From: Mobula hypostoma
Lineage: Eukaryota
Direction: 5' to 3'
DNA length: 64,000 bases
NCBI RefSeq assembly: GCF_963921235.1
Contig: NC_086108.1
Location: 51,710,001-51,774,000 of the forward strand
Numbering within the stretch: position 1 is the stretch's first letter; every line of letters starts with the position of its first letter. This document shows, piece by piece, positions 2,160 to 64,000 of this stretch. The notes beneath the pieces are model-generated. The model was not told the DNA's origin and did no database searches. It saw only the letters and a list, made by a program, of their open reading frames with translations. The position numbers and the translations under genes were made by a program.

Positions 2160-2261
2160 GCGCGAGAGATCACGGCTAGAACAGCTGCAGCTAGAGCAGC
2201 GATTAATGGAAGAGAAGAATAAACGCAAGAAGGCACTTTTGTCGAAAGCCATTGCAGAAAG
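2160..2261 (+). CDS. GORAB: GORAB coding exon 3 (102 nt)
   Basis: Acceptor tctctgcag ends at 2159 and donor GTGTGG starts at 2262. Encodes RERSRLEQLQLEQRLMEEKNKRKKALLSKAIAER, the characteristic GORAB coiled-coil segment. Confidence 0.95.
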
Positions 2262-2709
2262 GTGTGGAATATTGATGAAGAATAAATTGACTTCCTCAGC
2301 CCCCAGAGCTTTTCGGACTACTCGGGGAGTTTGAGCTAGTATGAAAACTGGATTTTTAAAACTTAATTAGTATAGTTTGTTGAAATCTCAGGTAACAAAG
2401 GTAAACTATTTGGCCACCATCCACAAGGCTTGGTTATATAGGTAGTCTTGCAATTCTTGAAGTGAAAGATTCCATAAAGAATGAGGACTTGCCTATAGTA
2501 CAGATTAACAAATGTTTCCATATACCCCTCTGAGTGAAATGTATACTGATTTAGTTAAAGTATACATTAAATGATGAATATAATTTGTGTAACAGTTAAT
2601 TTTTCCTTGGCTACATTTAGTTTCTTAAGTTAAATGTAAATATAATCTTTTCAAAGGATGTTGTGACTTATATATACTGTGCCTTCCTGACCAATTATCT
2701 TCCTCCTAG

Positions 2710-2850
2710 GTCGAAGCAAACCATGGCAGAAACTATGAAACTAAAGCATATCCAAAAAGAGCTTCAGAGTTTGGATAACTTGTTATCGAATGGTGTTAAT
2801 GTCCTCCGGAATCGGATTGAACAGTCCAGTTTGGAATATTATCAGGCTAA
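2710..2850 (+). CDS. GORAB: GORAB coding exon 4 (141 nt)
   Basis: Acceptor cctcctag ends at 2709 and donor GTAAGA starts at 2851. Encodes SKQTMAETMKLKHIQKELQSLDNLLSNGVNVLRNRIEQSSLEYYQAK; phase 2 at both ends, consistent with neighbours. Confidence 0.95.
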
Positions 2851-3051
2851 GTAAGAATTTTTTTTTTAAGGGACAGCCCGCAATTAGTTCGATATCTAGG
2901 TAATAGTGATGCTGACCACATCAGGTAATTAATTGTTGGTGTTATATCAATAGTTTTTACTCAATTTCTGAATACAGTTCTATTCTTGGCTAATATCAGC
3001 TAACTGCATTTCCCACTGAACCATCTGCAATTATTTTTTCGTTTTGCAATG

Positions 3052-4004
3052 CAGTGGATCCCGGTTAATTGGGGCACATCGGACCAGCACATGTTGGCCC
3101 AATTAAGCGGCTGCCCCAATTATCCAAAGTTTCATGGAAATAGAACATAGAGCATAGAAATCTACAGCACATTACAAGCATCTCAGCCCACAATGTTGTG
3201 CCGACCATGTAACCTATTCTAGAAACTGCCTAGAATTTCCCTACCATGTAGCCCTCTGTTTTTCTGAGCCCCATCTAAGAGTATCTTAAAAGACTATTAT
3301 AATTAAAAAGGTGTAATAAATACAAACTACCATTTAACTGAGTAGCACATTAAGTTTTTTAAATGAAATGCAGAAAGAATTAGAACATTACCAATACTAC
3401 TACAGTACTACAGAAGTGTCTAATAGTTCCTAATAGCTATCGACAGAGGAATTCATCTAGTTAACGTTGCCATGTTCTTGTGCTTGACTGTAAATGAACA
3501 AAATCAGCGCAGAAACCTAGTGCAGATAATGGCTGCTTTCATACAATGCTTTCCATGATTGCATTCTCCAAATCTTCATTTTCGTCGTAACATTCAAGAT
3601 GATTGCTGATAACCTTCAAATTCTTCATAGTTCCTAACTTGCTGAGGAAATGATTTCATTTTCATTCCCAGCCAATTTTGGTATTTCCAAGCCTGAATGC
3701 TTGAAGCGGTAGTGTGCAAAACCGTTCTGAATTGTCCAACTGCTTATTTCTCACCAACAAATCGCTGCTTTTTGAATACATGCAACACTTTAGGCTTGGT
3801 AGAGTGTCTAACGGCGACACAGGTGCACACAACTGACGCTCGTTACAAACTGTTCAGCAACAGTCTCCTGTCCCAATTAAGTGGCATGGTGTCCCAAATA
3901 AAGGGAATCCCAGCTATTTTCTTGATTTTTTTTATTCTTTAAGAGTTGTCACAGATAAGTAGCTGTCCCGATAAACCAATGGCCCAATTTACTGGAATCC
4001 ATTG
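3052..4004. mobile_element. Non-autonomous Tc1/mariner (Tigger/pogo-like) DNA transposon in GORAB intron 4
   Basis: Imperfect TIRs CAGTGGATCCCGGTTAATTGGG and CCCAATTTACTGGAATCCATTG. TA follows the right end and TG precedes the left end. Subterminal CCCAATTAA-like motifs are reiterated; no transposase ORF. Confidence 0.7.
3141..3295 (-). mobile_element. CR1-like LINE 3' tail nested in the Tigger-like element
   Basis: ATAGAACATAG...CTACAGCAC...CCCACAATG...TAGCCCTCT matches the tail at 57055-57200 and the reverse complement of 20450-20590. Confidence 0.75.
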
Positions 4005-5249
4005 TATTTAAAAGGACTGAGTAGCTTTCAACTATTGATGGATTTTGATCTTAGCAATATGTCAGGAAATTTCTATATTTTTCAGATTGTTGAGTCAAAG
4101 TTATAGCCAAAATAAATATTTCACCATGCAATTATTATAGTTATTAAAGTGGATTGCTGTCTTAGGTGGACATTTGCTAAACTTTTTTTAAGGCTACTTA
4201 AAAAAAATTACATTTAGATTAGAAATGTAATAGAAAGGAAATATTCTATTGAAATTTTACACTTGGAACAGTTATGACTTGTTATAAAAGTATCATGTTG
4301 GTCCTGCAACACAACTCTTGATGACCTTTACAATAAAAACACATGCTAGTTTACATACAAGTATGTGCTTATATGTATATATATTTCAGTATATTTTTAA
4401 AAAAACTCGTGCCTATTTTGTTTTCCAGGTTTAAATATGAACTTGGACAAGACCAGAATGATAAACTGAGTCCAAGCAATATCAGTTATTTAGATCAAAT
4501 GAGACTTTGTTTAACTACTTGTCACTAACCACCGTTATTTTCTTAAAAAAAATCAGTTATGAATTTGCCAATGCTAGTTCCATTGAGCAGATCTTGAGAA
4601 ATAAAACTCTTTACCAAAAGAGATGCATTATGCAATGAATCCCATTGTCAGCAGTTCATATGGTCACCCTTTGCCTTACCAGGCAATTAAATCAGGAAAA
4701 ACCTGTCCCCATTGTTTTCCCCTTAGTTAATAAAGAGAATATGACAGAGTACAAGATGACATTACAGATTTGTCAAATTGATGTTTAAAAGACAATTATT
4801 TTCAAGGTAGCTAAATTTCAAGTAGTGCATTTTGATGGGAAGAATCAGATGGCATGTTGCTTGGATCATCTAGGTGGCAGAGTAAACCATCTAGTAGTGT
4901 AACTATATAGTATGTATTGCCAACATTTTCTTTTATTTCATTGCTTTGACTCGGATCAGGCAACATTTGTGAGAGAGAAACAGTTTGTATTTTGGGCCAT
5001 TCAGAACTGGAAATAAATTGTTTAAAGGTGAAGATCAGGAAGAAGGAGAACAGAAAGGGAAATATGAAAGGTGTAATAAAGGTTAATAACAAAAGAGATA
5101 GTAATACAGATTTTGATGAAGTGAATTAAAAGTAAGTATATGGCAGTTGCCGGAGGGCTTGAAAGGTGAGAGGGTTTTTGAGAGAGTAGAAAGTGTACAG
5201 TGTTATTTAAATTGGTGGAGTGATTTGCGGGACCTCAGAACATCTTTGG

Positions 5250-6360
5250 CAGACAAGATTGAGGAAAATTGAAGTATTTTGTAAGTATATCGAGGGCAAG
5301 AGGGTAATCAGGGAAAGATCCGGATCTATTAGGGAACAAATGGTAATCAGAGAATATGGGTGACATCTCAAATAAATTGTTGTCAATTGAGAAGCATGTC
5401 ATTGTAGTTGGAAAAGTCAGAAGGCAGTATCAAAGATCTTAATGGGCTTTCCAGTGGAGAAATCACTAAGACCTTGTATCCCAGGCTGCTATGTAAGTTA
5501 GGAAAGGAAATTGCTGCAGTCCTGGTAGATCTTTAAATCTTTGGCCGCTAGTGAGGTGCCAAATGCTGAAAGACCGCAAATATGGTCCCCTTACTCGAGA
5601 AGAGTAGCAGGGGAATAAGCCAGATAACTGCAGGCTCTTGAGTCCAATGTCAATAGTAAGTTATTGGAACAAATTGAAGGAGAGTATTATTCTGAAATTG
5701 GAAAGGCAGAGATTAATCAAAAATAGCGTGATTTTGTTGTGGATTATCCTGTGAATTTCTCAGAGGTAACGAACTGTATTGATAGGGGCAATGTCATTGA
5801 TGTAGGCTACCTGGACTTCACTTGGGCCTTTGTCAGGGGCCCACACGTCCCTCGTGACAGGGAAGACTAGTTCAAAGGTTGTACCTCACGAAATACGGAG
5901 CAAATTGGATCCAAAATGGGAAGAACAGGGTGATAAGTAGAGCACTTTGTTTGTAATTAGAATCCTGTGATTAGTGGTGTACCACAAGGAATACTGCTGG
6001 GATTCCTACACACTAACAATTCAATTATGAACGTAGGGGGTTTAATGAGTTTGTAGATGACACAAAAGTTAGTAATGTTGTTAATGAGGATAATTGCTGA
6101 CTGCAGAATAATATTGATCAGTTGGTATTAAGAATAGATCAGTAACAGATGGAATTTAATCCTGATAAGTATGAGGTGATGGAGCATATTACAATAAGAA
6201 GCAGCAGAGGTTAATAGCAAGGAGGGAAAACTATATTCAGCACACCAGAAGGATAGGATGAAGAGGGTGAGAGCAGGCTTACTGGGATATAAATGGTGGC
6301 CAAGGACAGATATACAAAATATGTTTCTTTGTTGTAACTTGATGAAACTCACTGCAGGTC
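5250..6360 (+). mobile_element. Highly decayed CR1-like LINE fragment (RT region)
   Basis: Degenerate matches to the CR1 copies elsewhere in the window (gatgtaggctacctggacttc, agtggtgtaccacaagga, tttgtagatgacacaaaa, atggaatttaatcctgataag). Confidence 0.7.
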
Positions 6361-7020
6361 TATTCACAATTTTAAAAATAATTTTAAATTAAGCATCATT
6401 ATATTTACTATCAGTACAATATTGCACATAATGTATTTATGAGTCAGCAAACCTGCAATTTGAAGACGGGATTGAGAGATTAATTTGTTTAACGAGATAC
6501 TGTTCTTGCGTTAGTGTTGCCCTTAATCTCTATTATCACATTTTTAAATAATCAAAGGTCACGTTCATTGGATGGATTTTCAAGAACACAAATGTTGTCC
6601 TATTATATATTGTTGTCACAAACAATTCTATGCTGATACTGAGTTTAAGACTCTACTGTATGACTAGAGAGTGCAGAAGAATTCATTTGAAAGATGGTCA
6701 TTGTTACCACTCCTGTATGCAGCACATGATGGACAAACTTTGGTGCACCAGCTAATGAGGCAATCGCTATCCCATGTTGATTTACTACAGGCTCATACTG
6801 GCCTGCTGGTAAACTCCCATGCTGGTTCCCCACCAATTAGCTTGATTTTTGCTATAAACTGCAGAGGAAGATCTGTTAGGGCTCCTTGCAAAAGAATATT
6901 CATGGCCCCTGTGCATTTTGTTGCAACTGTTTTAATGGCTTTAGATGATTTTTCCACAGTATTGCCTTAACAGAGAATAACATGCATCTTGCTCATTGTG
7001 TGTCCTTTCCTGGCCCTCAG

Positions 7021-7483
7021 GAAGAGGTATGATAAAGCAGAAGTGGAATATGTTGCAGCTAAACTAGATCTACACAAGAAGATTGAACTGAAGGAGCAGC
7101 TGACTGAACATTTGTGTGCCATAATCCAGCAGAATGAATTACGCAAAGCTAAGAAGCTGGAGGAGCTGATGCGGCAGCTAGAAATGGAGGCAGATGAGGA
7201 GCAACTAGAGTTAGAGATTGAAGTGGAAAACATTTTGCAAAAGGAAGAACTACCCAAGGCATCTGATCAGACCAATACAGGAAGTGAAGAAGCAGCACAC
7301 CAGACAATTCAAGAGGAGGGCAGCCAGAGTCATACATTTAAAAAGCAGATTGAAAATGAAGTGGAGAGCACTGCTACTTGCAACACAGGCAGGGGTAATT
7401 TAAAGGACGCATTTCAAATTCAAGAAACTGAGAAATTGAATCCTCAAGCTCCAGAGAAAATCCAAACAGTTGCTAGAACTTGA
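7021..7483 (+). CDS. GORAB: GORAB last coding exon (exon 5) to stop codon
   Basis: Acceptor ggccctcag ends at 7020. Encodes [17 protein letters not shown]...[34 protein letters not shown]..., with TGA at 7481-7483. Confidence 0.95.
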
Positions 7484-32971: not shown

Positions 32972-33221
32972 ATGACCTCGAGTTATCCCCACGTTATGGA
33001 CAGGCAAGCGTCTTCTGTACCCACTCGCTTGGAGAACACTATCACAGCCAGTATGGACAATTTACAGTCTAAAAAGAATTTCACGGTGAGTCACCTGCTG
33101 GATCTGGAAGAAGTGGGGGAGATGAACCTTCAGCAGGCCGACGAGGGTGTCAGTGAGGCGGGCAGGAAACTCCTCGAGTCTCCAGTGGTGACCAGCGGCA
33201 GTGACACTCCCCAACAAGAAA
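32972..33221 (+). CDS. PRRX1: PRRX1 coding exon 1
   Basis: Start context aagccATGA. Encodes MTSSYPHVMDRQ...SKKNFTVSHLLDLEE (eh1-like/Prx motif)...SGSDTPQQE; donor GTAAGT at 33222 (phase 1). Confidence 0.95.
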
Positions 33222-37104: not shown

Positions 37105-37374
<270 letters not shown>

Positions 37375-38062: not shown

Positions 38063-38283
38063 TAAACGCAAACAACAGGAATTCTGCAGATGCTGGAAAT
38101 TCAAGCAACACACATCAAAGTTGCTGGTGAACGCAGCAGGCCAGGCAGCATCTATAGGAAGAGGCGCAGTCGACGTTTCAGGGCAAGTCCTGACGAAGGG
38201 TCTCGGCCTGAAACGTCGACTGCGCCTCTTCCTATAGATGCTGCCTGGCCTGCTGCGTTCACCAGCAACTTTGATGTGTGTTG
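38063..38283. mobile_element. Palindromic Penelope-tail-derived insertion in PRRX1 intron 2
   Basis: Perfect 77-bp inverted arms at 38106-38182 and 38207-38283. Flanking direct repeat GTTGGCCAGTTTT at 38050-38062 and 38280-38292. Homologous to the 3' tail of the element at 45176-46305. Confidence 0.85.
38186..38221 (+). ncRNA. Minimal type I hammerhead ribozyme motif
   Basis: AGTC-CTGACGA-AGG gtctcgg CCT-GAAA-CG-TC^GACT. CUGAnGA and GAAA boxes are intact, helices I and II can form, the cleavage triplet is GUC, and helix III is reduced to palindromic ACGT. Confidence 0.75.
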
Positions 38284-41367: not shown

Positions 41368-41543
41368 GTTTGGTTTCAAAACAGAAGAGCGAAATTCCGC
41401 CGAAATGAGAGAGCTTTGCTGGCCAGTAAAAATGCATCCATTCTCAAATCATTCAGTGGAGAGGCAGTGGAGCAGCCCATGGCACCCCGCCCTGCACCCA
41501 GAGCCCAGGATTACCTGTCCTGGGGAACGACATCTCCATATGG
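41368..41543 (+). CDS. PRRX1: PRRX1 coding exon 3 (homeodomain helix 3, Q50)
   Basis: Acceptor ctcctttcag ends at 41367. Encodes VWFQNRRAKFRRNERALLASKNASILKSFSGEAVEQPMAPRPAPRAQDYLSWGTTSPY; donor GTAATC at 41544 (phase 2). This frame is not in the supplied ORF track. Confidence 0.95.
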
Positions 41544-42829
41544 GTAATCTCTTATTGGTAATATATATATGTAATAACCACATTGCCCGGAAATTGCCAT
41601 GATATAGTACTGCCAGTCTCTCGTGAACGTAGCCTTCAAAGTTCAGAATTGACCCCCCCAATATGGTACTCTACATAATATTGTCAATAAGCTCATTAAA
41701 TTTGATGTTGTATCCACAATTCCATATCATGCAGCCTAGTATTAACTCCGCACTGTGAGCAATATGAATTTGATCAACAATTTCATTCTAAGCACAGCTA
41801 AAATTTGATATCCAGAACCCAAGAACACTTAGTATAGTCTTATGGTTAATAGATAGTACGAATGTAATATGTAAGTTACCTAAATGCAATAATATATGGA
41901 AAAAGGTGTATACAGAATAATAGACAGCATTATTAGATTTGTCAGGGTGACTGTATTTCAGCTACCTTGGCTGCCAAGCTTATTGAATATCTCCATAAAA
42001 TGGAAGGTGTTGTAGAAATTAGAATGCATGAAATGCCTATTTTTATAACGACAATTGGTAAAATCACAAAGACAAGGCAATTCAATGGAATTACAAAATT
42101 AAATACCTACATGCCAGGGACTGATGATGTCACTGCAGTGTGTGCTCGTTCTCATTATTGTAGAGAATGTGTTGTGCTTTGTAAATTCAGACTGAGAAAT
42201 ATTTCTGAACATTTTCACATTCTAGAGAAAACCTGACAGAAAGTTTGAATTAAATTCAGTGTAGACCCAAATGGGAAACTTCCTTGTCCTCAGTAATGGC
42301 CCTAAATGGCCTAAGAAAGGTGCACCGGTGCTACTTGCTGTTTTTCTTCCGAAAGTTGTCAGGACATAGCCAGTATTCTTTGCTTCAGCTAATCAGGAGC
42401 CAAAGCAATAAGCATGTCAGTAGGCATATTTCTTGGCAAGCAAGAAATCAATATCCCCACAGCAATTTATGATGGCAGGAAAACAAAGCCATCATTTTGG
42501 CAGCAGACATTGCTGTGGTAACAAGGAACTGAGTTATACATGGACTTGGTTCCCATTTGGAACTGTACAATAGACCAAGTATGGTATATAAAGCTCGAAA
42601 ATATTTTGTATCAATTATCAAATTATTGATAATGATAATAAGTTAATGCCAGAGAATTATTCAACTCTCTGGCATTAACTCATCTCCAGAATATCATTTT
42701 ACTGTTCTTGAAATTAAAATTGTCTGCTCTGTACATACATATTTATTAAGATAAATTAAAAAGAGATAAGGAGAATATTGAAAGTCCGTCTGCTTTCTGA
42801 AAGTCCTCTGATTTCTGAATTTTTTCCCC

Positions 42830-48950: not shown

Positions 48951-51275
48951 CCCTCCTAAACTCCTCCCCTTGGCTGCCCAACTAATGAATAGAATGGAAA
49001 ATCAACCTATTTATATATACTAGAATAACCAGTAATCTGAGAACCCAGTTAATCTTATTTAAGATGACTGGATTTTGTATTTTAACTGTTTCTCTGAAAA
49101 CTAATGATTCCAAACTCAAATGAAAATAATGTTTAGCATTAGGAAATCAATACTGTTAACAGGATTGTCAAAGAAAATAAGTACACTTGGTGACCACTTT
49201 ATTTTTACTTGTAGATTGGAGTTCCTCATAACTATTTTCCACTATAGCCTTGTGCTATGCCATATTTAATTCTGAGTTACCTAGAGCTAAGCTCTTAGGC
49301 CACATCCTTGGCACGTCAGATAACAGCCAGTCGTGAAACCCTGAGAGCAGGTCCTATTCCTGCAAAGAACTTAAGTCAGCCTGTAACTCCAGGTCAGGGT
49401 CTTCAAAAGTACCCTGAAAGGGAAAAACAGAGTTATTAAAGATGGAACTAGAGCTGTTTCCGAATACGCAAGCAAAGGAGTCGCTGTTTAGCGCCATCAT
49501 AACTAAGCTCCACCCTCTTCTTTATATTAGTCTGTTAACATTGTCCTGCAGTATACAGCTTTGTTTTTTCAGTATCAACCATAAACCAAATTTGGTGTCT
49601 TCTACAAATATCCCCTATTTTAAAGGGTAAACCAGACACTGCTTTCTATCACTGCGGCACTTAGGATCTAACTTTTCACTTTCTCTTCTATTCTCTTATA
49701 TCTTTATTTTTGTGGACAACTTGATAAGATCCACAGATCTCTTTCCTACACATCTAGCCCTGCAGCTTTGAAACTGGCTGGAGAATGGTTTAGAAGCTTG
49801 GCTTGTCGATTGGCTTCCTCCCTTTGTGCAGTAATAGGTCCCACTCTCAGTAAAGTCAGATGATTATAAGGATATCTCTCCACGACCCTTACACATTTTA
49901 GATTATGTTTCAGAGCAAAAGATTAATCCCTGAAAAGTTACTTAATAAAATATGAGAACATCTTGCATTAATGTAACACCTTTAATAGCAAAACATATTC
50001 TGAGAAAGTTTTAAAAAATGGTTATGATGAAATGAAGTTCAGATAATTATTTAGTTGTATTTCATATAAAAACTGTCTATATTCTAGTTCGGTTTTCCTT
50101 AATCTATGTATCCATGTTGGGTTGAAGTCCCATGTTCCTATTCCTGACCAGCTTCTATCCTGTGGAACAATACATTATTGTGCATAATCAGTAATAACAT
50201 ATGATCTTTGAAATAATAGTAGATTATGATTTACAATATTTATCATCGCTATATCATCTATTGTTACTATTAAAAGTGCTTAAGGCACATATACATATTC
50301 CTAACCCATATATGCTAAGAATTTAACATAAGGAAATTGTTCCTTTCTTTGGTCTTTTCTTCATACATGCACTATTCTTTAAAGCTTGATATTACATAAT
50401 CACTATTTTTGGATTTACCTCCTCATTTCAATTAGTTGACCGGGAATATGAGCCAACGGACCATCTTCATTGTGCATTTTATATGAGTCGCACAAAGCCA
50501 AATAATTTAGATTTAACAATGTTGATTAGCAACTCTAAATATGAAAGGGAAAAGGGCATGTTTAAAGACTTAATTTGCCTTATAATCAAAATGTTGTACT
50601 TTATTATATGAAAATCCTATCTAGAGTTATTTTATTTTAATAAATTACTACTTCATCAGCTCATTCATTTCTACAAATGAACTTCGTCTCATTTTCACAG
50701 TTAAGATAAAATTCCTACTGACAACAATATTACCAATAGGGTCAATAAATACAAATTGGGATAGAGAAGAAATTTCACACTGATAATTGCTTAATCCAAT
50801 GTTGTTTTGCAACAAAGTTCCACCAGTTTTGCTGGAGCTGGTAGCAACTCAGGAGTAAATCGGCCATTCTCTCAGCTAATCCAATATGGTAGACAGGGTC
50901 CTTGTAACCCGCAAAGCATAACACGAAAATAAATGTTTCAGTACTTTGCATCCGACTTACTAATATGACTTCAGCACGTGGACTCACGAACCATTGTTCA
51001 TCAAAACATACTGGAATGTTAGGTCTGACACAGGGTCTCATCAGCCTGCTTTATAATGAATCAGTGAATAGTCTGACATTTCTTTTCTCCCCTAATAAAC
51101 AAAAGTATTGGCTTCCATTCAGGCTTTCCTTACTTGTGTGACTAAAATTTATTGAGTGCCATTCCACAAGATCCAACAATGCATTTTGTTTGAATTAATT
51201 ATTTTTATTTTCAATTTGAATTTTAGTCCCTGTTTGTGTTCACTGTTTTCTTTTTAATCTCCTTTCTTCAAACAG

Positions 51276-51340
51276 TGCCACCAACCCTTTAGTATTCAAC
51301 ACAAGTGATCATTTTCTTATATGAACCTGGGTTGTGAATG
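51276..51340 (+). CDS. PRRX1: Candidate PRRX1 alternative cassette exon giving a short OAR-less isoform
   Basis: Long polypyrimidine tract plus acag ending at 51275. In phase 2 it reads (G)ATNPLVFNTSDHFLI*, with TGA at 51322-51324 and donor G|GTAACG at 51341. No transcript evidence. Confidence 0.5.
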
Positions 51341-52489
51341 GTAACGTCAAATTTGACAGTGTCACAGCCTAGTCAGATCCTTTTCTTAAACATTTACAGA
51401 GGCAGAATCAGGATCAGCTTTAATAACATCAGCATATGTCATGAATTGCATTAACTTTATGTCAACAATACTATGAAATACATGATAAATAAATGTAAAG
51501 AAAAAACAGAATTACAGTAAGTATATATATGTCTAGTAAATAGTTATGTTAGAATAAGTTGTGCAAAAAAACCCAGAAATAATAAATTAGTGAGGTAGAG
51601 TCCATGGGTTCACTGTCCATTTAGAAATCAGATGGCAGAGGGAAAGAAGCCTTTCCTGTAATAGGAATCACCAAATACCAACGATGCCTTATCCTAGCAT
51701 AGCTGCAGTGATTAGAATGTGTAAATTACATTAAGTTTTTTGAAACTTTGCAACTTGTATCCCATATCAGTTAATTATATTCAGGCTGGGGATAGCCTGC
51801 AACAGCCTGATTTTTATTGTTTGATATTACAACAGACATTGTGTTTATCACTAAGAGGCAGCAAAGTCTTGAAAATGTTAATGTTCCTACAATGACCAGT
51901 TAGTGTGGGAAATAGTGAAGACATACATCAAAAACTGCCTCCAAGCCATTCTCAGCACACTCATTACAATATGTTCAATTCATATCAACAAAGAATAATT
52001 TGCAAAATAATACTTGTTAACTATTGCCACAGGGTCTGTCTTAACTTTGCTATTTATGTGGCCCAGAACTTCTGATTTTAATGGCAAAGATCCTATTCTT
52101 CCAGCATGTACAGACTGTATTACTAATTATCACGTGCCGGTTTATTTTCCCTTGTATTTTCTAACCAAAGAAACATAAAGGCATTGGAGTCTCCATTATC
52201 TTGAGGGAATTTGCTGTGGATATAATTATGCCCAAAATTATTTAGGACTTAAATTCTAAGTATTTCAGATAATAGCAATTTCCTAAATTTCTAGCCAATT
52301 GTGTAGATTAGGCATAAAATGCTTAAGGACATGCAAACTTGGAAATGTTCCAAGTTTTAATATGTCATAAAATATGTTTAACATAAGATATGGTCCATAA
52401 TGTAGCAAGAATTTTTACTTAAATTTCTTTAAAATCTCAATAAAATAACTGCCAGTGGAAAATGTTATAAAATGTTATTAAAGTCATTA

Positions 52490-53530
52490 TAGCAGGAAAC
52501 ACAGAAAATTGTCAGGCAATCAAGCAAATTCACCATGGTTTGTGAAAAGGAAATTGTGTTTGACCAATTTATTGAATTTCTATTTAGAAGTGAATGGAAA
52601 ACCAGTCGATATATTGCACTTAGATTTCCAGAAGACACTTTGATAAGGTGCCGCATTAAAGTTATTGCAGAAAATGCAAGCTTGTGGTTTGGGAGGTAAC
52701 TGAATGGGTAAATGATAGGAACCAGGCACTCTAACGAGAAACAAAAGTAGGCAAAAATGTTTTTTTTCCCGGTTGGCAACATGTGGTGACCAGGATATAA
52801 ACTGTGAAGAAGACATTAGGAGGTTATAAGGATATATTAGCAGGTTAGCTGAGTGAGAAAAATAGGACAAGTAGTGTATATTTGGCTAAATGTATTATTA
52901 TTCATTTTGGCAAGAAATAAAAAACATTATCTACATGATAAGACATTGGGATATGTATCAAGATTCCTTGCGCAAGTTTTGCAAAAGGCTACAATGTAGG
53001 TTCTGTAAGTAATTAACAAAGTTAACAGAACATCACACTTTAATACTAGTGGAATTGTATTTATCCTTATACAGGGACATTAATAAGACTAAATCTGAAT
53101 TACTGTTTACTTACATTAGTAACAATATATGTATATTGGAAGCAGTTCAGAAACGTTTGTTAGAATGATGCCTTGAATGGGTAGGTTATCTTGAGAGAAC
53201 GGGTTAGGTCTGTATTTGCAGGAGAGGTAGCTTGTTTAAATATATGAGTTTCTGAAGGATTTTGCAACTTAAAGAGGGTACTTCTCGTGGGAGAATATAG
53301 AACTAAAGGTCTCTATTTGAAAAAAAGGGCTCACCCATTTCAGGCAGGATGAGGCTGAAGTTTTTCTCTTAGAAATTATAGGAGTTTTTGTTACTTTCTG
53401 TCATTTGTCTTCGAATATTTTAAGGCATAACATAATAGATTCTTGATAAGCAAGTGGGTGGAAATTTACTAGAGGAAGGTAGAAGTATGGAGTTGAGGTT
53501 CCAATCAGATAGGCAATGATTTTACAGAAT
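52490..53530 (+). mobile_element. Very decayed CR1-like LINE
   Basis: Degenerate catggtttgtgaaaaggaaattgtgtttgaccaattt, tttgataaggtgccgca and 3' tail. Confidence 0.65.
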
Positions 53531-54680
53531 GCCAGAGTCCAGGAAAGTATAGACCAATGAGTCTTACTTCAGTGGTTGGTAAGTTGATGGAGAAGATCCT
53601 GAGAGGCAGGATTTATGAACATTTGGAGAGGCATAATATGATTAGGAATAGTCAGCATGACTTTGTCAAAGGCAGGTCGTGCCTTACGAGCCTGACTAAA
53701 TGTTTTGAGGATGTGACTAAACACATTGATGAAGGTAGAGCAGTAGATGTAGTGTATATGGATTCAGCAAGGCATTTGATAAGGTACCCCTATCAAGGCT
53801 TATTGAGAAAGTAAGGAGGCATGGGATCCAAGGGGATATTGCTTTCTGGATTCAGAACTAGCTTGCCCACAGAAAGCAAAGAGTGGTTGTAGACGGGTCA
53901 TATTCTGCATGGAGGTCAGTGACCAGTGGTGTGACTCAGGGAAGTGTTCTACTCTTCGTGATTTTTATAAATGACCTGGATGAGGAAGTGGAGGGATGGG
54001 TTAGTAAATTTGCTGATGACACAAAGGTTGGAGGCATTGTGGATAGTGTGGAAGGCTGTCAGAGGTTACAGTGGGACATTGATAGGATGCAAAACAGGGC
54101 TCAGAAGTGGCAGATGGAGTTCAACCCAGATTAGTGTGAGGTGGTTCATTTCGGTAGGTCAAATATGATGGCAGAATATAGTATTAATGGTAAGATTCTT
54201 GGCAGTGTGGAGAATCAGAGGGATCTTGGGGTCAGAGTCCATTGGACACTCAAAGCTGCTGCACAGGTTGACTCTGTGGTTAAAAAGGCATACGGTGCAT
54301 TGGCTTTCATCAATCGTGGGGTTGAGTTTTGGAGCCGAGAGGTAATGTTGCAGCTATATAGGACCCTGGTCAGACCCCACTTGGAGTACTGTGCTCATTT
54401 CGGGTCGCCTCACTACAGGAAGGATGTTGCCTGGATTATGGAGCATGTCTTATGAGAATAATGCCTTTTCTCCTTGGAGTGATGGAGGATGAGTGGTGAC
54501 CTGATAGAGGTATATAAGATGATGAGAGGTATTGATCGTGTGGATAGTCAGAGGCTTTTTCCCAGGGCTGAAATGGCTAGCACGAGAGGGCACAGTTTTA
54601 AGGTGCTTGGAAGTAGGTTCGGCTCAGTATGGAGGGCCGAAGGGTCCATATTGTGCTGTAGGTTTTTTATGTTTCTCATT
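53531..54680 (+). mobile_element. CR1-like LINE 3' portion (younger subfamily)
   Basis: Contains SLTSVVGKLMEKI, QHDFVKGRSCLT, SKFADDTKVGG and YRTLVRPHLEYC; same subfamily as 19410-20590. Confidence 0.9.
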
Positions 54681-54708
54681 TGTATGTTCATGTTCAACGT
54701 TGAAAACT

Positions 54709-56640
54709 TAAAAGTTCGAAGTAATTTCATTAAGAAAGTACATATATCTCACCATATACTGCCCTGAGATTCATTTTCTTGTGGACATTTGGAGTAAGTA
54801 CAAGAAACACAATAGACTAAGTAAAAGACCACACCCAACAGGGTGGACAAACAGCCAAATGTGCAGAAGACAACAAACTGTGCAAATGAAAAAGAGACAA
54901 ATAATATTTATTGCTTATTTATTATTTAAGAACATGAGATAAACAGTCCTTGAAAGTGAGTCCATAGGCTATAGGAACAGTTCAGTGATGGGGCAGGTAA
55001 AATTGAATCAAGTTATCTCCTCTGGTTCAACAGCCTAATGGTTGAGTGGTAATAACTGATCCTGAACCTGGTGGTGTGGGTCCTGAGGCTCCTGTACCTT
55101 CTTTCTGATGGCAGCAATGAGAAGAGAGCATGGCCTGGATGGTGAGAGTCCTTGATAATGGATATTGCTCTCCTGCAATAGTATTCCGTATAGATGTGCT
55201 CAACGGTGGGGAGGGCTTTACCTGTGTTGGACTAAGCTGTATCCACTACTTTTTGTAGACTTTTCTGTTCAGTGGCAGTGGTGTTTCCATACCAGGCTGG
55301 GATGCAACCAGTCAACATACTCTCCACCACACATCTATAGAAGCTTGTCAAAATTTTAGATGACATACCAAATCTTTGCAAACTTCTAACGAAGTAGAGG
55401 CATTGCCGTGCTTTCTTCATAATTGCACTTATATGTCAGGCCCAGCACAGGTCCTCTGACATGATAACACCAAGAAATTTAAGGTCACTGACCCTCTTCA
55501 CCTCTGATCGTTCAATGAGTAGCTGACGCTCCTCCGGTTTCCTGCTCCTGAGGTCAATAATCAGCACTTTGCTTTTGTTGACATTGAGTGAGAGGTTGTT
55601 GTTGTGGCACCACTCAGCCAGAGTTTCAATCTCCATCCTCTACGCTGATTTGTCACCACCTTTTATTCAGCAAATTTAAACATGGTATTGGAGCTGCACT
55701 TTGCCTCACAGTGATAAGCATACAGCAAGTAGAGCAGGGGGCTAAGCACACCGCCTTGTGGTGCACCTGAGCTGATGGAGATTGTGCAGGAGATGTTTCT
55801 GTCAATTGGAACTGACAGGAGTCCGCAAGTGAGGAAATTGAGCATCCAGTTGCACGAGCAGGTATTGAAGCTTATTGATTAGCTTTGTGGGCATGATAGA
55901 ATTGAATGCTGAGCTGTTGTCGATGAAGGGCATCCTGATGTATGCATCAACATTGTCCAGTTGTTACAGGGTACAGTCAAGAGCCAATGAAATGGCATCT
56001 GCTGTTGTCATGTTGCTCCAGTAGACAAATGGGAGAAGATCCGGGTCACTTCTCAGGTGGGAGTTGATATGTTTCATCACCATCCTCTCAAAGCACTACA
56101 TCACAGTGGAAGTAAGTGCTGCTGGATGATAATCATTTAGGCAGATTACCACATTCTCCTTAGGCACCGGTAAAATTGAAGCGTACTTGAAGTGGGGACT
56201 GATACTTCAGACTGCTGAAGTGAGATTTAAATATATTGGTAAACACTCCAGCCAGATGATCAACACAAGTCTTTAGTACTCAGCCAGGTACCCCATATGG
56301 GCTGGATGTTTCAGTGGGTTCACCCACCTGAAGGATGCTCTCACATCAGCCTCAGACACTGAAATCACAGGGTCATCAGGGGCTGTGGGAGTTTGCGAAA
56401 GTGCCTCCAAGTGAGCATAAAAGGCATTGAGCACATCTAGCAGCAAAGCCTTGTTGTCACCTATATCACTTGGTTTCACTTTGTAAGAGGGGATAACATT
56501 CAAACCCTCTCATAGGTGTCAATCATCCTTCAGTAATTCCAATTTGGCCTGGAATGCCATTTCGCATGTGAGATGGCTTTCTGGAAATCTGATCTGGCCC
56601 TCAGCAGACTGCAGATCTCATGGTTCATCCAGGGCTCGTT
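54709..56640 (-). mobile_element. Decayed Rex1/Babar-like LINE (RT and 3' end)
   Basis: Minus-strand remnants GAPQGGVLSPLLYLLY..., WCHNNNLSLNVNKSKVLIIDLR, KFLGV, KKARQCLYFVRSL...FYRCVVESMLTGCI.AWYGN. Confidence 0.8.
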
Positions 56641-57051
56641 GCTGGGTGGCATGACTCATTGGGCTGGAAGGGCCTGTTCTGCACTGTATCTCTAAATAAA
56701 ATAAAATTAATTTCAAGAAAATGGACTTGGGAGTCAGAAGCAATGTTTGAAGATGTTACAAAGCTTATGAAGATGGCTGTTCACTTCTAGATAATGTAAA
56801 TTGTGGTGAAATGCCCAGTAGCTTTGTAGAAGAAACTTAATGAGTGAAGTGCGGCAAAGGAATTTTTGGGATGAATGATATGGGGAGACAGTAAGTTATA
56901 AATGGTATGATTTGGGTGAAAAGAGTTCCATAGGCACATATTCTTAAAGGAAATAGCATAAGTTAACATATTTCAAAAACTTATGGGTGGTTTTGTTTTT
57001 AATATAAAAGCATAGATTATTAAATCCAAGAGTTCAAAGCTTAATAAGTTT

Positions 57052-57790
57052 TTAACATAGAAACATAGAAAACCTACAGCACAGTACGGGCCCTTTGGCC
57101 CACAATGCTGTGTCGAATACAGTATGTACTTACTTTAGAAATTACCTATGGTTACCCATAGCCCTCTATTTTTCTAAGCTCCATTTACCTATCCTGGAGT
57201 CTTTTAAAAGACCCTATCTTATCTGCCTCCAGCACCGTTGCCGGCAGCCCATTCCACACACTCACCACTCTCTGCTTAAAAAACTTACCCCTGACATCTC
57301 CTCTGTACCTGCTCCCAAGCACCTTAAAACTGTGCCCTCTCGTGTTAGCCATTTCAGCCCTGGGAAAAAGCCTCCGACTACCCACATGATAAATGTCTTT
57401 CATCATCTTACACACCTCTATCAGGTCACCTCTCATCCTCTGTTGCTCCAAGGAAAAAAGGCCAAGTTCATTCAGTCTATTCTCATAAGATATGCTCCCC
57501 AATCCAGGTAACATCCTTGTAAATCTCTTCTGCACCCTTTCTATAGTTTCCACATCCTTCCTGTTGTGAGGTGAGCGGAACTGAGCATAATACTCTACAA
57601 GTGGGGTCTGACCAGGGTTCTATATAGCTGTAACATTATCTCTCGGCTCTTGAACTCAATCCTACAGTTGATAAAGATCAATACACCGTATGCCTTCTAA
57701 ACCACATAGTTAACCTGTGCAGCAGCTTTGGGTGCCCTATGGACTTGGATCCCAAGATCCTCGTGATCCCCCACACTGCCAAGAGTCTTA
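57052..57790 (-). mobile_element. CR1-like LINE 3' portion, inserted in an older + strand CR1 remnant (~56650-58320)
   Basis: ORF 57185-57553 reads ERVQKRFTRMLPGL...LFSLEQQRMRGDLIEV...WNGLP; the (AACATAG) tail is on the left. Confidence 0.9.
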
Positions 57791-58908
57791 CACCAGCAAC
57801 CTAAGGATCTAGTTAGATTGGGACACTATGGACAGTTCTGGATAGCATACACTTCAGGAAAGATATAACAGATGTAGAAGGGGTACAAGGGAAGTTTATT
57901 GAGATGTTACCAAGGATGAGGGACTTCAATTATAAGAAAAATCTAAAAAAAATTGTTTTGTATTTGAGAAGGTTCGGATTTGACTTCACTGTGGCTTTTC
58001 AAGTGATGCAACGTTTTTGCATGATAAACTAATCTCTGCTGAATGAGCCAGTCTCCAAAGGCTATGGGTTTAAACTGCTTTGCAGAAGGAAAAAGGAGAT
58101 AAGGAGATTTATTTTTCATTGGCTTTTAAGATCTGGGATACTCAGCCTAAAAAGGAAGTTGATTCAGTGAGTGATTTTAAGCAGGTTGGTCAATTTCTTA
58201 AGAATAAGAAACTGTGGGATTACAACAAAAAGAAAGATATGAGAACAAATATGACTGCTATTTCAAAGAGCTAACACAACAAGATGGGCCAAATATCTTC
58301 CTTCTTTGTTGTAAGTGTCCATGATTCTCTGCAGTAGTATAATCTCAGTATCCTGAAAGAGAATAAAAGTTCTCTATTTAAATTTAGACTCTATGGTTTC
58401 AATTAAAATCTTGTTCATGTTTAGAATAATTACTGGTGCTGATAATCATAACATTGATGCACCCACACATAGACAAACACAGACACAGCAACACGTGTAA
58501 ATGATTCTAATTCTAGTGCTGTGCTATGCAATCTGAAATGTATTTATTCAACTGAGACTAAAGTTATTAATTTGCCTTGTCAATTATCTGATGTCAATAG
58601 AACATTATACCAGTACATCAAGGGTAATTTCCACATTTTCTGTGCACAACCTTTCTAAACAGACTGTATACACTTGAGGATCAACCTTACCCTTCAGCTA
58701 GTCTCTTTGGCCGTACATCCTATTGGACTCCATAAATCCATTCCACAATTCCTCTGTACACAATAGGTATGTATCAAATCAATCACATTAATATACATCG
58801 TACCCATAATACCTTGATGTAAACACCATTAATCAGTAACACTCAAGCAATGTACATTGGTTACTTTACAGGAGGCATGTAACAACAGGCATCATTTCAT
58901 ATCCATCT

Positions 58909-59002
58909 ATGATTTCCATAGATGCTGCCTGACCTGCTGAGTTCCTCCAGCATTTTGTGTGTGTACTTTGGATTTCCAGCATCTGCAGACTTTCTGGTGA
59001 TT
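58909..59002 (+). mobile_element. Penelope-like extreme 3'-tail fragment
   Basis: ATAGATGCTGCCTGACCTGCTGAGTTCCTCCAGCA...TTTCCAGCATCTGCAG; duplicated ATCATTTCATATC at 58891-58903 and 59003-59015. Confidence 0.75.
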
Positions 59003-59955
59003 ATCATTTCATATCTATCTGCATAACCTGTGTCCTCCTGCCTTCTTTCTGTCTTAGAAACACCCACATAATTATACACAAAATACATGTGTATTATTCC
59101 CCTCTTTCTGAATGTTTGTTACCTATCATTGTTCCTTAAGAAAATAAAGCAAATGTTTATTCAACTGAAATAAGTTACAATTGAGAAAATAAGAATGTTA
59201 TTCTAAAAGTAAAAGACAGAGGTAATATCATAGCATCTAAGCAATTTTAATGTCTTTCATAATTATTTTTATGCCAATGATGAAATTATGTGTATTCATG
59301 ATTAATTAACTACATTGAGCAAATATAATCATTGCTATCCAGTGTGACAACCTGTCACAATGGCAAACTTTATTGTTTAAGAACTGTGTTGGAAGTTATG
59401 GAAAGTAAGTGAAACAGATTTAGCATAGTGTTTCAAGTGAAAAGTAAAGAATATATGCAAAGACAATGTTTTGGAGAACACAGATCTATCAAGTAGAATC
59501 CTTGCATTAAGTTAAGAACCAAGCTTGTGGTTGATATTTCATGTTGATGGCATTGATTGATTGCTAGATGAAATATGCCCTCTTGGGGCCATTTAGTTTC
59601 AGTGCTGATGAGATCATAAGTAGGTAAGACATACTGTATGTGTAGGACTAGGCCATTTGGTTCTTTAAATCTGCTTTACTAATGATCAAGATCATGGTTA
59701 TGCTCTATCGCAGTGCTATTTTCTTGCATTTTCCTGCACTATGCCCTTGACCCTCCCCCCCAAGAAACAAACTACAATCAATCTCTTGTTCGAATAAACT
59801 CAGCAACTACAGCTAGCACAATCTTCTGGAAGAGAGAATTTCAAAGATTCATTTCCATTGTGTATGAAGAAGTCAACTCTGACTTACTGTATGTTTTCCT
59901 TCAATTCAGTAATGACTGGCATGCCCTTTATTCTGAGACTGTGACCCCTAGTTTT

Positions 59956-60212
59956 ATTTATTTACTTATTGGGATACAGAGTAGAATAGGCCCTTCCGAC
60001 CCTTCGAGCCACGCCGTCCAGCAACACCCAATTTAATCTTAACCTTATCATGGGACAGTTTACAATGACCAATTAACCTACCAACCATCTTTGGACTGTG
60101 GAAGGAAACTGGAGGAAACCCACATGAAAACGGGGAGAACATGTAACAGTGGGAATTGAACCCGGGTCGCTTGTATTGTAAATTGTTGTGCTAACCTCTT
60201 CACTACCATGCC
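59956..60212 (-). mobile_element. tRNA-derived SINE nested in a minus-strand CR1 remnant (~59620-60600)
   Basis: Minus-strand head GGCATGGTAGTG...GGTTAGCAC with B box GGGTTCAATTCC, central TGGGTTTCCTCC motif and AAAT-rich tail; flanking AGTTTT duplication. Confidence 0.75.
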
Positions 60213-61972
60213 AGTTTTTGACTCCTTAGCCAAGGCAAACATCCTTCCTGCATCCACAGTTTTACCCTGTATGAATTTAGTAAATATCAATGAGATCACT
60301 TCTTATTCTTCTAAATTCTGGAGCAAACAATGTCTTTCGAGAATGCTTAGTATCTTTTCAAATATTAAAGAGACCATCACATGCACCATTTTATTGAATT
60401 TTCACTGCAATTCCTCTATGGAAAATGTACCTTTTTTAGGTAAAGAAACCAAAATTGTACACAATGGACTGGGTGAAGTCTCAGCAATGTTCTATATTAT
60501 TGTAATAAGAATTCTTTTCTCCTTTACTTAAATCCTCTCTCCTAAAGAGCCAGCATACCATATACCTTCCTAGCTGCTTTTTCCCATTTCATATTCCATC
60601 TGGTATGTTCTTGTCCACTCAGTTAGCTTGTCTATATCCTCTTATTTAATAAAAGATCTTTGTGATCCATGTTAAATTAATGTTAGTTACAGGGCAATCA
60701 GTTATTTATTAAGTTAAACAGCTTTACTCAGTCTGATAGTAGTGAGTCCCCAACGTGTAATGTGCATGAGTACAAGTTTCTGCTTTACTTAAGCGTGATT
60801 CTGGCAAAGGCTGAATTATAGCTTAGTATAACCAAACCAAAAAACTGTCAAACCAAAGGAACATTGAAACAGATCATCCAATTTAAAGTATCAGCCTTGC
60901 TTTGCTCCCCAAGGAAATCAGCTTGGACAATGTCTCCTGAAGAACCAAGGTGTTTCTAGTTTCTGTTATTCTTATCACATAAGTATTGATCTCAGAAGGA
61001 GTGGAAGGGGAGTATATAAAAGACACTGCATACTGAACAATGAAGTACTGGATAGATTGATTTAATGGGTAGGATTTACTGTAAGTGAATTTTAATGTGA
61101 AATTAATGAATAAATAGTTGAAGATTTGAAAATACAGGTGGAGGTATAACATGTGGCAATTATTGCTTAGGTGAGAATATTTAAGATTCCCATTTTTTAG
61201 ACATCCTAGGTGTTGAGTCATCAGGTTCATCAGCTCCTGTGTGTACTTTTGCATTGACTAGATTTTGTCTGCAAGACTCCCATTGTTCAACAAAACTGAA
61301 ATTTTGAAAATGCATGGAAAAACAATTTCACAATCATGTATTCTCCTCTTTGGCAGGCCACTACATCTATTTGCTGTGCTAGAATTCCACCCATCTCTCT
61401 TGTGCGTGTCTTTTCTTTCCTCAATTGATGATAAACTTAATTCTCCCATTCTGTTTGTGTCTAATTGTGATCTAATTGAACATCTGAAATTTTTACATTA
61501 AAGTGAGTTGCTGTTCCCCCGCTCCACAGCAGTAGTAAAAAGCTCAAACCTGCTGCAGAGTGCATTCTAGATTTCACATTTCAACAATTCTCTGGTTCAT
61601 TTGTTATTTCAGCTTTATGCAGACATTGCATCACATATAGCCACATTGAAGTCTGTTTATTCATGTGAAATGTTTCAGACCAATATTTTATGAGCAGGAT
61701 CAAAAAGTATTGAATTGCAAAAGAGCAATTCAGACTGCAAGGTGATAGCATTTGTTCAGTCAGTAAGAGAATATGAATGTAATAGAATCTCCATTTTCCA
61801 CAATAGAGGTTTTTCTTGAAATAGATCCTGATCATATCATATGCCAAGTTTAATTTACCTCTAAAACTTTGGAAATTACCATGGTAACAAAGAAAATGTG
61901 TATATAGGTATTATTTAAAGGCATGATTCTTGTTGCTCGCTAGCCAACATTGTATGTTTGTGTGTCCCATAG

Positions 61973-62111
61973 TGCAATGGCCAGCTACTCCTCCACCTGT
62001 GCTGCCACTAGCCCGACTCAAGGAATGAATATGGCCAACAGTATTGCCAACCTTCGCCTCAAAGCCAAAGAGTACAGCTTACAAAGAAATCAAGTGCCCA
62101 CCGTGAACTGA
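61973..62111 (+). CDS. PRRX1: PRRX1 final coding exon (OAR domain)
   Basis: Acceptor tcccatag ends at 61972. Encodes (G)AMASYSSTCAATSPTQGMNMANSIANLRLKAKEYSLQRNQVPTVN*. Spliced CDS 250+176+176+139 = 741 nt, 246 aa. Confidence 0.95.
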
Positions 62112-62361
62112 GTACCCCTCATGGACTATAGCAACCATGGGTCCATATATTCTCTGCAAACAGACATCATCAGAAACAGGTCTTAATGAAGGGAAAAGAA
62201 TGAAAAACTACATACAACAACATAATCCCAGTGCAACAGGCTAATTAAATACACCGACGCACACAAATACTTGACCTGTATAGAGCCAGAATTGCTGACA
62301 CGTTTCATCCCTGTGGATTTTTAAGTAAAAGCAAGAGTAAGTATATATTCCAGTTTTGTCA

Positions 62362-62766
62362 AATAAATGTTTTCCAACCCAGAATTAATATACTGGGACA
62401 CAATTTTTCAAACTTTGGCTAGACCAATTACAAGATTTTTTTTGGTGTACGTTTAAAGGGACTTTTATTGGGTCTCCAACTGAGTGTTGTATTAAAGTTA
62501 TATTGTATTGTTTCTATACAGATTTTACATTTTGTATCCATGACAAGGTTATTGTTAGCAATGCATTTTTTTCTATAGAGAAGCTTGGTAAGGCTATTTT
62601 TTGTTGACCAAACATTTTCTTTCAAGATAAGGCAAATCTGATTTCCTGTTCTCTCCATGTCTGTAACAATCTTGACCAATTCTGAAAGGGAAAATGGTTC
62701 TTTTGTACACAATAAACAAGCACTCAAAGACGTGGGATTATATCTGACCAGAAATACATCAATAAA
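62362..62766 (+). promoter_or_regulatory. Candidate PRRX1 polyadenylation signals in the 3' UTR
   Basis: AATAAA at 62362, 62711 and 62761; the true 3' end may lie further downstream. Confidence 0.3.
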
Positions 62767-64000
62767 TTATTATGAAAATATTGCTGTTGACAAATGGGTC
62801 TTTTTCAAAATTACTTTGCTAAATATTTTGTTGCAATGATGTACTATGCACATAAGTCACAGATGCAATAGGCACTAGTGCCTATTAGGTAGATTCATGC
62901 ATATTCTAGACAAAAGCTGTTAACTGTTTAGTAGCTGGTTTGCTAAGTTTCAGTTGTGAATATCAGAGAATTAGTGAACAAAAATGAGCGGGATCCTTCC
63001 ATCCCATAATTCAACCTTCCCAAGGCACTTTCCCCAATATCCTACACCATTTCAGACCTCACTTTTCCACTTTTAAATATGCCATTAGCCACTATAAATG
63101 TTCCTGACTTAGTCTACAATGAATGATTTGTTTAAAGATTTAAATGTTGTCCAGAAACTGTAAATTTATACAGTATCTCAAGGATATATATCCAGATATA
63201 AAATAGAACAGTATTTAGGATTTATTAACAAATAATTGACAATATTTGAATATTATGGTACTCTCCTAAGAAAGATAGAAAAACTAAAACACCCCTGGTT
63301 TCACTCCTGTCCAGAAAATTTAAAATAGGCCTTTATGTTCACCATCAGTAACTGCTCTATGTGAAGATTCCTTTTTCTAAAATTAATGCAAATTCATTCG
63401 TTTTGGATATTTATTCATTTTCCTTTTGAACACAACAGTTAACTCTAGCTTCACTATTGCCCTCCGGGCAGTGCATTCCTGACTCCAACCACTGACTGTG
63501 TAAAAATATTTTTCATTATGATATTTCCATTAATGTCTATGGCAAATTATTGTCATTCAGTATATGTTGAGATAAATTGATCCACTGGCCATTTATAGCA
63601 AAGAAACACAACACGGGGTTCATCCTCTCTGTTAATTTATGTTTTTTTCTAGATTTCACTTTGATTTCTATGGCATTCACTTTAATTATTTCCTACATTT
63701 TGACCAACGTCTAGACAACGAAGATTTTAGTTTGCTTTTGTTGTAAGGCTGAAAGGTAATGAGTAGCAAGTGGTCCCAGGGAAGAAAGGAAGAAGTTGGA
63801 CTAGTTAAGTCATGGTGAAAGAATGAACTGAGGATACTGGTCTGGGGATACATTTTCCTGATAAAAGTAGTGCATGTGTGGAGAAGCTTCTGAAGTCATT
63901 TCAGTTGCATAGGATAGATTTTCAGGAACACTGCTCTAATATACAAATAGCATATTAGTAGAAGTGCAGACACCATTCTATGTAACTCAAACAGCTCTTG

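Follow-up and report, generated by a model that had tools for sequence, protein, structure and literature searches.

The PRRX1 locus of Mobula hypostoma

The + strand of the window, a 64-kb stretch of Mobula hypostoma DNA, carries the PRRX1 gene. The coding exons that make up its long isoform, together with the OAR motif, are located as follows.

32972..33221, + strand: PRRX1 coding exon 1, from the ATG to the donor AAA/GTAAGT
37124..37299, + strand: PRRX1 exon 2, encoding most of the homeodomain
41368..41543, + strand: PRRX1 exon 3, with the phase-2 donor TGG/GTAATC
61973..62111, + strand: PRRX1 last coding exon, encoding a 46-residue tail and the stop codon TGA; covered by contigs of four sequencing runs
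62025..62078, + strand: OAR motif, covering residues 219-236 of the 246-aa form (window coordinates derived from the exon model)

When exons 1-3 are joined to the last exon, the translation is 246 amino acids (aa) long and identical to the RefSeq PRRX1 X1 model of Mobula hypostoma (P0132), which confirms the gene name given in the original prediction for this stretch. The exon translations of the window were found to be identical to all three Mobula RefSeq models, namely P0132 (246 aa, X1), P0126 (224 aa, X2), and P0125 (201 aa, X3). A Pfam analysis of the 246-aa form revealed a homeodomain (PF00046) at residues 98-154 and an OAR domain (PF03826) at residues 219-236 with an E-value of 7e-8, and among the ray isoforms the OAR was detected in the long one only. 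Judging from the homeodomain, the C-terminal OAR encoded by the last exon, and the closest relatives, which are PRRX1 proteins, the gene is the PRRX1 ortholog. Upstream of it, at least three golgin-like coding exons (GORAB, RAB6-interacting golgin) were located at 2161-7249 (+) by a tblastn search with P0067. The GORAB-PRRX1 neighbourhood is a vertebrate feature.

Two side observations concern the 5′ part of the gene. At 38106-38283, intron 2 holds two short interspersed repeat copies lying head to head, with 85-nt arms that are 96% complementary and an 8-nt gap, which would form a long hairpin. A catshark isoform (P0002, 205 aa) has a different N-terminus with no match to exon 1 of the window, which suggests that some sharks have an alternative first exon.

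A conserved 104-nt exon that probably removes the OAR

Intron 3 of the ray gene contains an alternative exon of 104 nt, inside which there is a second possible acceptor.

58663..58766, + strand: 104-nt alternative exon, with the acceptor CTTTCTAAACAG/, the tail GLYTLEDQPYPSASLFGRTSYWTP, the stop codon TAA at 58733-58735, and the donor TAG/GTATGT
58698..58766, + strand: putative 69-nt version of this exon, from a possible internal acceptor CCCTTCAG/CTAG, with an immediate stop and a 201-aa protein

The joined translation of exons 1-3 and the 104-nt exon is 224 aa long and identical to RefSeq X2 of Mobula hypostoma, whose tail was mapped by tblastn to 58664-58732 at 100% identity. The exon has AG/GT ends and is read in frame, and its stop codon lies 31 nt before the donor, that is, under 50 nt. 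The OAR is lost, and Pfam detected none in the 224-aa form. A self-search of the window found no repeat at the 104-nt exon.

Is this exon conserved? The 24-residue tail is identical at 24 of 24 positions in Amblyraja radiata and Pristis pectinata and at 23 of 24 in bamboo sharks. Between the ray and the bamboo shark, exon 1 is identical at 78 of 84 positions, and the OAR exon of the ray is identical at 42 of 46 to those of the zebra shark and the catshark. By these counts, the tail of the 104-nt exon is conserved to the same degree as the constitutive exons. This exon and its 224-aa OAR-less protein are likewise found in the elasmobranch RefSeq PRRX1 X2 models XP_062921010.1 (Mobula hypostoma), XP_032884123.1 (Amblyraja radiata), XP_051867906.1 (Pristis pectinata), and XP_043555440.1 (the Chiloscyllium cluster), RefSeq X models being automated predictions. 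The named carriers of the tail are Mobula hypostoma, Amblyraja radiata, Pristis pectinata, Chiloscyllium plagiosum, and C. punctatum. Among the 15 listed of the 46 chondrichthyan cluster members, five are 246 aa, four are 224 aa, and six are 201 aa in length; the four with the 224-aa tail correspond to 8 RefSeq accessions. The skate X2 protein (P0127) is present in Logan assemblies too, which would imply an intron-free, spliced contig. In Hypanus sabinus, whose X2 is the 201-aa form, no 224-aa form was found among the matches listed, and the three listed chimaera proteins lack such a tail. A protein search with the tail alone (P0126 residues 183-224) returned two cluster representatives, isoforms being hidden within the 90% clusters.

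In summary, the 104-nt exon lies in intron 3, is joined in phase 2, brings its own stop codon, removes the OAR, and is conserved. The real OAR-removing exon is already annotated in RefSeq, which leaves no hidden exon to be found.

These features suggest how the isoforms may be made. If the 104-nt exon is skipped, exon 3 would be joined to the last exon to give the 246-aa protein with the OAR. If it is included, joining in phase 2 would add a junction glycine and 23 residues before the stop, and the translation and the Pfam analysis predict a 224-aa protein with an intact homeodomain and no OAR. The strong donor of the exon would then be spliced to the last exon, so that the OAR exon would become 3′ UTR, and with the stop codon 31 nt from the last junction the mRNA would be expected to escape nonsense-mediated decay (NMD). 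The inclusion of the exon is presumably regulated. By analogy with mammals, the short ray form may be freed from OAR-linked inhibition and may have partly different targets.

The third form, of 201 aa, may arise by read-through into intron 3 or via the internal acceptor 58698. Read-through of the exon 3 donor (41544-41547) reads GGG TAA and gives 201 aa, identical to Mobula RefSeq X3, and six elasmobranch proteins among the matches listed have this form. The 58698 acceptor scores, under an approximate matrix, at least as well as that of the 65-nt candidate exon described below. In the 69-nt version the stop lies 65 nt before the donor, which would make it a borderline NMD target.

A 65-nt candidate exon in the same intron

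The original prediction had placed a hidden OAR-removing cassette exon at a different site in intron 3; the 104-nt exon sits 7.4 kb downstream of it.

51221..51275, + strand: pyrimidine tract and AG of the candidate, with 24/30 pyrimidines and a 47-nt AG-free zone
51276..51340, + strand: 65-nt candidate exon, likely a pseudo-exon, as assessed from its AG/GT ends, splice scoring, and protein comparison

The layout of the candidate is as had been described. Its acceptor ends in TCTTCAAACAG at 51275, with the AG at 51274-51275, and the segment from 51276 to 51340 is 65 nt long and followed by the donor ATG/GTAACG. Joined to exon 3 in phase 2, it reads GATNPLVFNTSDHFLI and then TGA at 51322-51324, giving a 216-aa OAR-less protein, and the TGA lies 16 nt upstream of the donor, within the 50-nt rule for escape from NMD. 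The tract is also as strong as was claimed, with 24 pyrimidines in 30 positions as compared with 18-22 in 30 at the acceptors of exon 3, the 104-nt exon, and the last exon.

How often would such a site be found by chance? Splice sites were scored with a matrix of approximate human-type frequencies. With this approximate matrix, intron 3 has 26 sense-strand acceptors, that of the candidate among them, which together with a donor 40-250 nt away score at least as well as the candidate, and the antisense control of the same intron gave 18 such pairs. The OAR-less layout that escapes NMD under the 50-nt rule occurs in 8 of the 26 sense pairs; thus, this layout is common in the AT-rich intron 3. A stricter metric based on the tract (pyrimidines and AG-free zone) left 3-4 sense pairs and 1-3 antisense pairs. 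The candidate is among the better pseudo-exon-like sites, yet a few such sites per intron are expected by chance. Again under the approximate human-type matrix, the donor of the 104-nt exon scored 8.6, that of the candidate 5.5, and the exon-3 donor 3.9.

For the protein comparison, 405 PRRX1-family proteins were retrieved by homolog search and cluster look-up. No 5-mer of the candidate peptide was found in any of the 405, which include, for the chondrichthyan cluster, the 15 of 46 members among the matches listed. The exon of the elasmobranch RefSeq X2 models differs from the 51276-51340 candidate. The peptide had been described as unlike the mammalian tail, and this is correct, no similarity to the amniote exon being found: the score of the candidate DNA against amniote exon 4 was reached by 29 of 300 shuffles. 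Compared with 76 non-chondrichthyan tails, the candidate tail gave p<0.05 for 7, with a best p of 0.004 (a seal model), which is not significant after correction, several of these tails being related to each other. A hidden cassette exon at 51276-51340 is hence unsupported, with a splice signal at chance level, a peptide absent from 405 proteins, and no similarity to the amniote exon. What survives of the proposal is the general idea of an OAR-removing exon with an unrelated peptide in intron 3 of cartilaginous fishes, by way of 58663-58766 and not of the exon that had been named.

It was also considered whether the candidate is a decayed copy of the 104-nt exon. This was rejected, since a score as good is attained by 866 of about 2000 stretches taken at random from the intron. 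The self-search gave no match for 51276-51340, and the candidate is not part of a window repeat.

Might the candidate instead be a second cassette, minor or restricted to a lineage, which is used beside the conserved 104-nt exon and was missed by annotation? Its tract ranks within the top 3-4 of intron 3 (24/30 pyrimidines and the 47-nt AG-free zone), and its donor outscores that of exon 3. Species-restricted extra PRRX1 tails are present in the RefSeq models of cats, elephants, and a tenrec, and thus young exons do arise in PRRX1 intron 3. However, the antisense strand has comparable sites as well, 18 under the matrix and 1-3 under the strict metric, the +5 position of the donor is a non-consensus C, and the proteins that lack the candidate peptide include the three listed Mobula isoforms, whose accession numbers are consecutive. 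I consider such a second cassette to be improbable, and the same low estimate applies to any real use of the 65-nt candidate exon. It is quite probable that 51276-51340 is an unused pseudo-exon and that 58663-58766 is the real OAR-removing switch of PRRX1 in sharks and rays.

Cover in sequencing-run contigs

The last exon and the 3′ UTR are contained in 18 sequencing runs, all of them as contigs; RNA status was guessed for 14 of the 18, and none is on record as RNA. Four of the 18 runs (X1, X3, X15, and X9) were aligned to 50800-62800 at 88% likeness, and interspersed repeats dominate these alignments. Of 485 joints in the four runs, 15 were displayed in tables dominated by repeats, and none of the 15 is at a PRRX1 splice site. 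Last-exon contigs start at 61972 in runs X1, X3, and X15, which is what a branch at the acceptor would produce. One such branch is formed, in run X15, by an intronic contig (61636-62001). In run X3, no second upstream branch was identified for the last-exon contig, which starts at the acceptor, and this is a further point in favour of the second, minor cassette considered above. The last-exon contig of run X1 has no differences over 782 letters at a depth of 52.8.

In run X1, the bin 58419-58819, which holds the 104-nt exon, has a depth of 3.88, corresponding to about 15 if it came solely from the 104-nt exon, the piece itself not being listed; this depth is a hint. The same bin has no cover in runs X3, X15, and X9, which does not mean absence because contigs drop rare forms. 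The bin of the 65-nt candidate is covered in all four runs, but the same bin holds a repeat copy at 51405-51482. As for the repeats themselves, inverted fragments at 54190-54676 and 57059-57791, which are 83-90% complementary, flank about 2.4 kb just upstream of the 104-nt exon and could pair in the pre-mRNA; contig cover over them is heavy in each of the four runs.

These contigs bear on whether the 104-nt exon is internal, as the cassette exon 4 of mammals is, or instead an alternative last exon ending at a downstream polyA site. A terminal exon would be compatible with the AATAAA at 59143, downstream of the exon, and with the absence of the 58766>61973 joint from the 15 joints displayed of 485, and a protein model alone cannot separate a terminal from an internal 104-nt exon. 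On the other hand, the near-consensus donor TAG/GTATGT (8.6) lies 31 nt past the stop, a spacing that fits an internal exon escaping NMD, and the last-exon contig of run X1 starts exactly at the acceptor, as the graph structure would lead one to expect if several upstream paths enter there. A terminal exon is not likely, with perhaps a slightly better chance than the second cassette.

OAR-less tails across jawed vertebrates

In 396 of the 405 PRRX1-family proteins, it was possible to anchor the point where exon 3 ends. Beyond it, 243 proteins read into the OAR, and 20 reach a stop after at most one residue. The amniote tail, shared by mammals, turtles, birds, and lizards, is present in 40, an amphibian tail in 23, a ray-fin tail in 11, and the elasmobranch tail in 4, and 55 end in another way; single models from lungfish and crocodilians carry tails of other kinds. 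The amphibian OAR-less models leave exon 3 at the same junction and comprise 23 proteins of the SGWSQTPKVRTYLFQDW type from frogs, salamanders, and a caecilian, and their peptide is unrelated to the ray tail. The same junction is used by the ray-fin OAR-less models (11 proteins, from reedfish to teleosts), whose tail is kept within the group and is likewise unrelated to that of the ray. Unlike the ray exon with its own stop codon, the ray-fin exon mostly removes the OAR through a frame shift in the last exon. There are teleost models in which this cassette is in frame with the last exon and the OAR is kept, while in gar, bowfin, and reedfish the frame is shifted and the OAR is removed (P0092, P0056, P0039, and P0148). 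Incidentally, the RefSeq isoform number was tried as a ranking by length and rejected, as Hyla, Pseudophryne, and reedfish are exceptions.

The similarity of tails within each group is clear (p 0.001). The elasmobranch, ray-fin, amphibian, and amniote tails are each conserved within their group, and the ray tail has no significant likeness to the others in any frame. Against 76 non-chondrichthyan tails, the ray tail gave p<0.05 in none. The original prediction had raised, as one possibility, an OAR-removing switch going back to the gnathostome ancestor of which the architecture alone was kept. A conserved layout with an unrelated peptide does hold, for the 104-nt exon and not for the exon that had been named.

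From these sequence comparisons, I tentatively propose, at somewhat less than even odds, that an on/off switch of the OAR in PRRX1 intron 3 spans four groups of jawed vertebrates, each of which would use a different exon with a tail hardly changed over hundreds of millions of years, and that the switch has been remade repeatedly by exon turnover, the tails being constrained and more than carriers of a stop codon.

A single ancestral exon may instead lie behind all OAR-removing exons of jawed vertebrates, with frame and sequence having drifted, so that the ray exon would be the ortholog of mammalian exon 4. OAR-removing exons do occupy the same intron in the same phase in four lineages. Mammalian exon 4 is about 72 nt in length. 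The retrieved mammalian models read it in all three frames in a mutually consistent way, with 0 of 54 codons violated as compared with at least 17 in shuffled controls, and thus a comparison at the DNA level is possible. In the alternative frame of this exon (P0333 and P0341), 6 of 10 residues match teleost tails, with an uncorrected p of 0.006-0.011 for three related teleosts. However, the profile gave p 0.07, random intron translations attain the score in 55 of 5000 cases, and the likeness fails correction; moreover, it concerns bony vertebrates only. In a 12 by 12 comparison of tails, one lizard-gar pair gave p 0.004-0.007. As a weak hint from the sequences, the amniote and ray-fin exons may share ancestry with a frame shift. 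For the ray exon, the comparison with the amniote exon revealed no similarity, the best p over all frame pairings of the peptide being 0.14 and the DNA score of 60 being reached by 250 of 300 shuffles, and this stands against the single exon together with the absence of any match among the 76 tails. Short exons of this age may be unalignable, and thus shared descent with amniote exon 4 is compatible with no detectable homology. I rate a single ancestral exon as rather unlikely. It concerns origin and is compatible with the 104-nt exon acting as the switch. A search of the window with the amniote exon profile gave 57757-57828 as its best site, which beat all 60 shuffles under one of four scoring settings and overlaps the repeat arm 57595-57791; it was rejected as chance.

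The 104-nt exon itself is already known from RefSeq, and the unreported part is the pattern across lineages, that is, conserved tails that are specific to each lineage. In a literature search on PRRX1 isoforms in sharks, in skates, and across vertebrates, in which subscription journals are thinly covered, no description of elasmobranch isoforms or of a cross-lineage pattern was found, and no fish data on a functional difference between PRRX1 isoforms were found either. Non-mammalian isoforms may already be discussed in a comparative Prrx paper from 2014 (gar, teleosts, and tetrapods) or in Norris and Kern (2001). In mammals, the balance of PRRX1 isoforms is important for the biology of bone, fibroblasts, and cancer. 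The present analysis adds an OAR-less PRRX1 isoform for ray-finned fishes, amphibians, and sharks and rays, each with its own strongly conserved tail. If the exons arose separately, PRRX1 would be a case of a regulatory splicing switch that was preserved while its exon was replaced.

Comparison with mammalian PRRX1 isoforms

According to PMC11554955, the mammalian PRRX1 isoforms are 245 and 217 aa in length, and the mammalian precedent cited in the original prediction, an exon-4 cassette giving a 217-aa protein with no OAR, is as stated there. The shorter mammalian isoform, PRRX1b, is described in PMC11554955 and bioRxiv 10.1101/2020.10.30.362384 as containing an optional exon that follows exon 3 and precedes the last one, with an early stop by which the homeodomain is kept and the OAR is removed. 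The mammalian isoforms act differently in cancer models, as reported in PMC4719312 and PMC8291965, and PMC11655573 names a third isoform, PRRX1C.

A further short form is known from the mouse. Prrx1 isoform c (NP_001020741.1, 200 aa) stops one residue past exon 3, like the 201-aa X3 form of elasmobranchs. Read-through of any phase-2 GTAA or GTGA donor gives such a stop, and thus the likeness between mouse isoform c and ray X3 need not be selected. Unlike mouse isoform c, the 201-aa ray form has a second possible route via the acceptor 58698.

The mammalian exon-4 cassette and the 104-nt exon of the ray are alike in that both are optional, bring an early stop, keep the homeodomain, and lose the OAR. 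They differ in that the ray exon of 104 nt encodes a 24-residue tail, as compared with the 18-residue tail of mammals, with no detectable similarity between the two in any frame.
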